This document shows, one piece after another, positions 58,363-58,771 of a DNA stretch of 64,000 nucleotides. Under the pieces are notes generated by a model that saw nothing but the letters and a program-made list of their open reading frames with translations, was not told the DNA's origin and ran no database searches. Position 1 is the first letter of the stretch. Each line of letters starts with the position of its first letter. The DNA comes from Botryllus schlosseri (lineage: Eukaryota): positions 23,748,001 through 23,812,000 of the forward strand of contig CM119371.1 of NCBI GenBank assembly GCA_051294905.1. The letters run 5' to 3'. A program made the translations under genes and the position numbers.

Positions 58363-58771
58363 ATGTCGAAGAGGGGAAGTAACATATCTCGAAAACGATT
58401 GAGCGACTATCACGTTAAATTAAAACTTTTGAAAAACGCTAAAGGGAAACAGCGTAAAGAACTTTTATCGAACAATCAATTTTTAAGTTGCGTTTGCCAG
58501 TGCGTTCATAACTTGGCTTCGGGGACAGTACGTATCTCTCCATCGAGAAAGTTGAGGCTTGGAAAACACAAATCCGATATCAGACAATTGTTGGCGCAAA
58601 AAACTCGCAGAGGTCAACGGAGGGTGCTACAAAAGGGTGGATTCCTCTCAGGTATAAAAAATTATGATAAAATAGAAACTTTTTTCTAATCAGTCTGTTT
58701 TAGCTATATTAGGCGCTGCAATCCCCGTCATCGGGAGTCTGCTGGGTAAACTTTTCGGGAAGAATGCGTGA
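58363..58771 (+). CDS. Spliced basic virion protein with C-terminal amphipathic peptide (exons 58363-58651 and 58704-58771)
   Basis: G|GTATAA donor, TTCTAAT branch, TTTTAG acceptor; the spliced product ends QKGGFLSAILGAAIPVIGSLLGKLFGKNA*. Confidence 0.8.

Follow-up and report, generated by a model that had tools for sequence, protein, structure and literature searches.

This locus raises the question of whether a short open reading frame (ORF) in a Polinton ends where its frame closes or whether its last part is separated from the rest by a spliceosomal intron. The first-pass annotation of the window (the whole 64,000-nt stretch of Botryllus schlosseri DNA analysed here) had read the 52 nucleotides at 58652-58703 as a hidden intron, whose removal would complete a peptide freed by an adenain-type protease and membrane-lytic in the manner of adenovirus protein VI, perhaps under the control of a late or tissue-specific splicing switch. 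The segment lies within a Polinton/adintovirus element, with the following features.

50358 to 64000, no strand assigned: Polinton/adintovirus element, left end AGTAGT at 50358, running off the right end of the window
50812 to 51354, minus strand: ORF of 180 aa, hydrophobic at its N-terminus, at the element's left end
51311 to 51892, minus strand: single-BIR IAP gene, left end of the element
53828 to 57706: pPolB
57710 to 58327, plus strand: packaging ATPase (A32-like; Pfam Pox_A32, E 8e-9), upstream neighbour of pm
58764 to 59102, plus strand: pz-position gene downstream of pm, with an 8-nt overlap with exon 2
59090 to 60088: integrase with chromodomain
60042 to 60251, plus strand: ORF of 69 aa containing two hydrophobic stretches, located after the integrase and before the first of the minor capsid-like genes
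60248 to 61776, plus strand: two tandem minor capsid-like ORFs of 269 and 240 aa, with similar ends
61754 to 62125, plus strand: pw/Cupiennin-position gene with QSGG and QRGHG, then an amphipathic helix (moment up to 0.81)
62175 to 63452: double jelly-roll capsid
63449 to 63904, plus strand: predicted adenain-type cysteine protease, from its position after the capsid and His/Cys motifs seen by eye

The name of the pz gene rests on its position, in the gene order given in the accessible part of PMC8097293, and not on a family match, and a Pfam search with the predicted protease gave no match. Acceptor-like AGs are found shortly upstream of three start codons, those of a small ORF (53445-53461), pm (58323-58363) and the major capsid (62168-62177), and an AATAAA is present at 58323, between the ATPase and pm; the operon-like layout could use trans-splicing. 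Elsewhere in the window, a zinc-finger ORF of 819 aa (27377-29836, minus strand) sits between large inverted arms with ~52-nt tandem repeats at ~26000-42300, a unit that is likely a separate large DNA transposon, and 17388-20723 is a fold-back of a reverse-transcriptase (Penelope-like) element with arms that are 92-96% complementary. Inspection by eye further suggests a host P-loop ORF of NACHT type at 14938-16176 (plus strand).

The gene in question is divided by the segment as follows.

58363 to 58651, plus strand: exon 1 of pm/GasderminX, a basic helical domain ending in QKGG plus three residues
58630 to 58641, plus strand: QKGG, predicted adenain-type protease site, with putative cleavage
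58652 to 58703, plus strand: candidate GT-AG spliceosomal intron of 52 nt, phase 1, in the pm/GasderminX gene
58684 to 58690, plus strand: branch-point-like motif TTCTAAT, which reads CTAAC in other copies owing to C at 58690
58704 to 58771, plus strand: exon 2, the remaining hydrophobic, proline-kinked pX-like tail, with the stop TGA at 58769-58771

Position and fold together identify the ORF at 58363 as the Polinton core gene pm/GasderminX. The gene lies between the ATPase and pz, which is the place of pm in vertebrate Mavericks as described in the accessible text of PMC8097293, and AlphaFold models were obtained for the window ORF (pLDDT 76) and for an intronless relative, P0153 (pLDDT 89). 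The top viral match of both models in Foldseek was GasderminX of Terrapene adintovirus, with E 0.034, prob 1.00 and TM 0.61 for the window model and E 4e-5 and TM 0.68 for P0153. The exon 1 product contains 25 K/R vs 3 D/E in 93 aa. Fold searches of the PDB gave no convincing match (the highest Z was 4.7, with an rmsd of 4.4 over 87 aligned residues, and the lowest E 0.15) and no gasdermin among the matches listed, although a link to gasdermins may still exist; a PDB sequence search returned one chance match, the ESM Atlas unnamed clusters only, and a word-index protein search with exon 1 no matches.

The coordinates and signals proposed for the segment are borne out on the sequence. GT at 58652-58653 directly follows an exonic AG, in a donor that reads GTATAA and is weak, a pyrimidine-rich stretch and the branch motif, with the branch A 14 nt before the segment end, precede the AG, and TTTTAG closes the segment at 58703. 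The GT and AG ends would be met by chance at ~0.002-0.004 per placement, with 3 equivalent placements of the cut. The composition of the segment is also distinct, its GC content being 19% vs ~42% in the flanking genes; when a 52-nt window was slid over 53828-63904, 11 of 10,025 positions were equally AT-rich and the cluster of lowest GC was at 58652-58703. A donor/branch/acceptor rule applied to the plus strand over 50358-64000 yielded 6 candidates, among which the segment is the only AT-rich one, the other 5 having 42-49% GC. The segment carries stops in all three frames. We found no notable RNA fold or hairpin in it (z -0.82), no second copy and no sign of repeated introners within the 64-kb window, and no similar AT-rich splice candidate inside the other core genes of the element.

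Unspliced, the ORF spans 58363-58689 and ends just as the first-pass annotation wrote, with the interruption falling four codons after a conserved GG and the second part open over 58706-58771. Splicing was also said to restore tight gene packing by making the new stop overlap the next ATG; the ORFs do overlap, by 8 nt, but the stop at 58769-58771 is clear of the ATG at 58764-58766. Other boundaries were considered. The acceptor AG at 58693 was rejected, as it lies 4 nt past the branch A and shifts the frame, the AG at 58712 keeps the frame but loses three residues present in relatives, and the TAG at 58673 led us to reject a reading of the 52 nt as a coding insert of 51 nt with one base in error. 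A second AT-rich GT-AG candidate is found at 53760-53810 (plus strand; 51 nt, 27% GC, no clear branch motif), which ends 17 nt before the polB ATG and overlaps the end of a small ORF stopping at 53794.

We examined 82 of the 86 loci from the ATPase alignment, four distant viral loci being left out. Most of the loci that reach far enough have a pm ORF ending in GG and a hydrophobic tail, and the remaining ones are cut by contig ends, are without pm or have a broken pm. A profile built from 44 hand-picked complete intronless pm ORFs scored the window gene at 75.6 bits when it was read through, with X at the junction, vs 59.3 bits unspliced, and aligned it across the junction without a gap. When exon 1 was the only query, so that the tail could not be favoured, 296 matches were obtained; among the best 150 of these, 123 fit the motif pattern, with a tail by a strict rule in 116 and none in 7, and the other 27 were left unscored. 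In comparisons with the tails of the nearest three relatives that lack the intron, exon 2 has 13/20, 11/20 and 9/20 identical positions, vs 1/11, 0/11 and 0/11 for the unspliced tail, P0153 being the nearest of the three (13/20 and 1/11). Viral contigs yielded no close relative, with 6 distant ATPase loci, and prokaryote genomes yielded no relatives. The contiguous GG and helix that the first-pass annotation wished to see in homologues is thus found in one piece, which argues that exon 2 is, by sequence comparison, the ancestral C-terminus and the 52 bases an insertion into ancestral coding sequence. Homologues ending right after GGFL are not the rule, the exception being the closest relative.

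This relative, P0152, is 52% identical to the window protein (E 2.5e-20), and its ORF ends GGFLS-G-K-stop, matching the phase-1 break site of the window gene. Such an ending is what a phase-1 GTAAGT-type donor would give if left unspliced, and among 123 relatives Gly occupies the junction column in 2. In a tree built from the sequence upstream of the tail, P0152 is sister to the window gene (97/95), with a bootstrap that had not entirely converged, and P0153, P0185 and P0197, which come next, have a contiguous tail. In the ATPase tree the window groups with P0001-P0005 (100/98), with no firm placement of P0003. Contigs of equal length suggest that P0152, P0197 and P0185 belong to elements with ATPases that are 66%, 62% and 57% identical, respectively. 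Because P0152 ends at the same break, a shared intron is supported, and a single gain in the common ancestor of P0152 and the window element would be the simplest account. P0152 is known as a protein alone, its DNA having been found neither in viral contigs nor in prokaryote genomes, and its ending might instead reflect the edge of a contig or a nonsense mutation.

Other copies of the element were compared using 4 of the 24 listed sequencing runs. Contigs of runs X1, X2 and X16 keep the segment, in every copy aligned over the site, and the segment is seen to drift: 3 of the 4 indels listed over 5,001 bases fall inside the 52 bases, none touching GT or AG, and the majority of the depth in other copies has a segment one base shorter. 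All five substitutions listed for the coding parts, four in exon 1 and one in exon 2, are synonymous, as are 23 of the 32 listed in ORFs, figures that rest on the 40 listed of 158 substitutions. In the two minor capsid-like ORFs, 7 of the 13 listed substitutions change the residue, exceeding the other genes. With its signals, its stops, its tolerance of indels and its collinear junction, the segment behaves as an intron, as had been proposed.

The same data bear on two explanations that do without splicing. The segment could be an inactivating AT-rich insertion, with the tail lost in this lineage, which we regard as quite unlikely. It would account for the lack of a spliced read in the runs compared, and broken pm copies do occur among the relatives; but exon 2 is intact and collinear, the ends are exactly GT-AG with a branch motif, no copy aligned over the site is without the segment, P0152 breaks at the same place, the other core ORFs are open with mostly synonymous changes, and the window holds no second copy of the segment. 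The six broken pm copies (L007, L014, L039, L045, L058 and L083) carry point or small frame changes in the printed stretches, where no insert like the 52-nt segment was found. The GT-AG ends with the branch motif, the drift of the segment and the P0152 break thus favour an intron over damage. Alternatively, a +1 frameshift at the run of U that precedes the TAA at 58687 might take ribosomes into the tail. TTT TTC TAA is a slippery run and the frame of exon 2 is open from 58676, but in the copies with the shorter segment, by our reading, the frame of exon 2 runs into the TAG at 58673, P0152 reaches a stop two codons past the break, and the product would gain ~17 residues found in no relative examined, so that recoding is highly improbable.

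No spliced read or contig joining 58651 to 58704 was found in the runs compared. A search of sequencing runs listed no RNA run carrying the sequence, and run X24, recorded as RNA and sampled to ~6/100, gave 21 aligned reads and zero depth over the gene. Runs X1 and X2, which retain the segment, were guessed to be RNA and would, if they are, argue that splicing is not efficient; across all 5 kb, however, their coverage is even in a way that resembles DNA. The intron could also be real and regulated, with retention giving a tail-less basic core protein and splicing a membrane-active form, such that the splicing state of the host would switch the Polinton between a resident transposon and an infectious-particle mode. 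Besides the contigs of these possible RNA runs, a switch would fit the weak donor, the placement of the segment just behind the predicted cleavage site, where retention removes almost exactly the tail, the persistence of the intron over ~48% protein divergence and the lack of a similar AT-rich candidate within other core genes. However, the unspliced tail is not conserved, varying with indels among copies and comprising two residues in P0152, and protease cleavage alone would give nearly the same tail-less protein. We consider the regulated intron unlikely, and the switch of mode that would follow from it equally so.

Taken together, 58652-58703 is very probably a true and long-retained spliceosomal intron with U2-type signals, as far as can be read from DNA and protein comparisons. 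The fuller account, in which an old and routinely removed intron lies in pm/GasderminX and the protein ends in a protein X-like tail that is clipped by a protease, is in our view probable. The element would be transcribed in the nucleus, where the host spliceosome would remove the 52-nt segment, and the product would consist of the basic helical domain, then QKGG, then a 25-residue hydrophobic helix. The protease of the element is expected to cut after GG and free the tail inside the particle, with the basic domain possibly serving DNA condensation and the freed tail maturation or membrane entry. In the simplest reading the intron would be constitutive rather than a switch, and nuclear transcription of the element would make it cost-free.

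The predicted cleavage site is well kept, the Q and GG of QKGG being conserved in 90% or more of 112 relatives, but with Gln at P4 it fails the adenain motifs (M/I/L)xGG and (M/I/L)xGxG, which were taken for comparison from the accessible part of bioRxiv 10.1101/341131. The three nearest intronless relatives have LxGG at the site, close to the adenain motifs, and QxGG/QxGxG motifs recur in ORF 61754, before its helix; for both reasons, a shifted specificity of the element's protease is likely on sequence grounds. The tail of the window gene is a 25-mer with Pro at position 11, a maximum moment of 0.51 and a mean hydrophobicity of 0.73. Over 96 relatives the median moment is 0.44, 94 of the 96 tails have Pro at positions 6-12, and tails carry a net charge of +1 to +2. 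In the P0153 model the tail is one helix, residues 97-118, with a mean pLDDT of 89. Pfam Adeno_PX weakly matches 27 of 112 relatives (best E 1.6e-4), the five matches inspected being on the tail and below the Pfam cut-off, and exon 2 alone gave no match to it.

These properties do not support the proposed likeness to protein VI, since the tail is pX-like and mostly hydrophobic, with a maximum moment of 0.51 vs 0.81 in ORF 61754. On the strength of the same difference, the protein of ORF 61754 would be a better candidate for a protein VI-like entry peptide than the pm tail. We take this protein to resemble cupiennin, and its pw/Cupiennin name draws in part on that presumed likeness. The other basis of the name is position, from the gene order in the accessible part of PMC8097293.

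Membrane lysis by the pm tail, as predicted, stands at roughly even odds. We give somewhat less than an even chance to the view that splicing does occur but that the tail serves structure or assembly alone, for example as a capsid-interior anchor, and is non-lytic, with entry left to the pw/Cupiennin helix; this view concerns the function of the tail and is compatible with the intron explanation. The moments, from the median of 0.44 in relatives to 0.51 in the window vs 0.81 in ORF 61754, and the low net charge of +1 to +2 point to a structural tail, as does the division of labour in adenovirus, where, in the accessible text of PMC8156859, the lytic helix is in protein VI and protein X condenses DNA. 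On the other hand, melittin-like peptides also combine a hydrophobic helix with a Pro kink and a basic terminus, and an HHpred likeness between melittin and protein X is noted in the accessible part of PMC8502044.

An intron at this place has several consequences. Core genes of animal Mavericks are described as intronless, and where uninterrupted ORFs are the measure of an intact element, this lineage would count as pm-defective, though its gene is likely whole once spliced. Persistence of the intron over ~48% protein divergence would imply nuclear transcription of a virion gene by host Pol II, together with selection that has maintained its product. The spliced pm junction would be an RNA-only marker and hence a DNA-proof assay of late gene expression, one that bears on whether animal Polintons make particles, and if retention were regulated, it would constitute a switch between transposon and virus.

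In the accessible text of PMC8097293, where Kapitonov and Jurka 2006 is cited, no introns were seen in the genes of intact vertebrate Mavericks, and nematode Maverick core genes are described as intronless, with introns in cargo only, in that of bioRxiv 10.1101/2022.07.12.499685. The parts consulted of PMC10748475, PMC11161782 and bioRxiv 10.1101/2025.02.07.637071 contain nothing on introns in pm/GasderminX, and no report of one was found in the literature outside subscription papers, Repbase entries and bioRxiv supplements. What is new here is an old intron in this virion accessory gene. The tail peptide is a known feature, already published, with a function that is proposed only: GasderminX has a pX-like domain near its C-terminus and was likened to membrane-active proteins (Starrett et al. 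2021, PMC8502044, in part), and a membrane role for the family was previously proposed there.

The closest known system is GasderminX of Beta adintoviruses (PMC8502044), which we equate with pm (Barreat and Katzourakis 2021, PMC8097293), both as described in the accessible parts of these papers. The window gene shares with it the fold, a length of ~110 aa, the position between ATPase and pz and, provided that its exons are joined by splicing, a C-terminal pX-like tail after GG, but vertebrate Maverick pm is intronless as described, whereas the tail of the window gene is split by a GT-AG segment. Adenovirus protein X (pre-mu, PF05829) is likewise basic, with a GG cleavage-type motif and a hydrophobic, Pro-containing tail; it is a protease-cut, DNA-condensing core protein, the lytic helix belonging to protein VI (accessible text of PMC8156859). 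Two Polinton features, the folded helical domain at the N-terminus and the Gln at P4, set the window protein apart from protein X, and the Adeno_PX matches remain below the cut-off. With protein VI (helix 34-54 in the same text) the window protein shares a helix that proteolysis is predicted to expose, but in protein VI a strongly amphipathic helix starts a large mature protein, whereas here the helix is a short C-terminal hydrophobic piece. Introns inside integrated elements of this kind have parallels in protists and nematodes. Introners occur in dinoflagellate proviruses (PMC11957031) and group I introns in protist PLVs (PMC12220804), as given in the accessible parts of both, and the introners, together with the nematode cargo introns, are likewise host-type introns inside integrated Polinton-like elements. 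Unlike these, the case in the window is one lone intron, set in an accessory virion gene from the core of an animal element, and it appears to be common to a distant relative.
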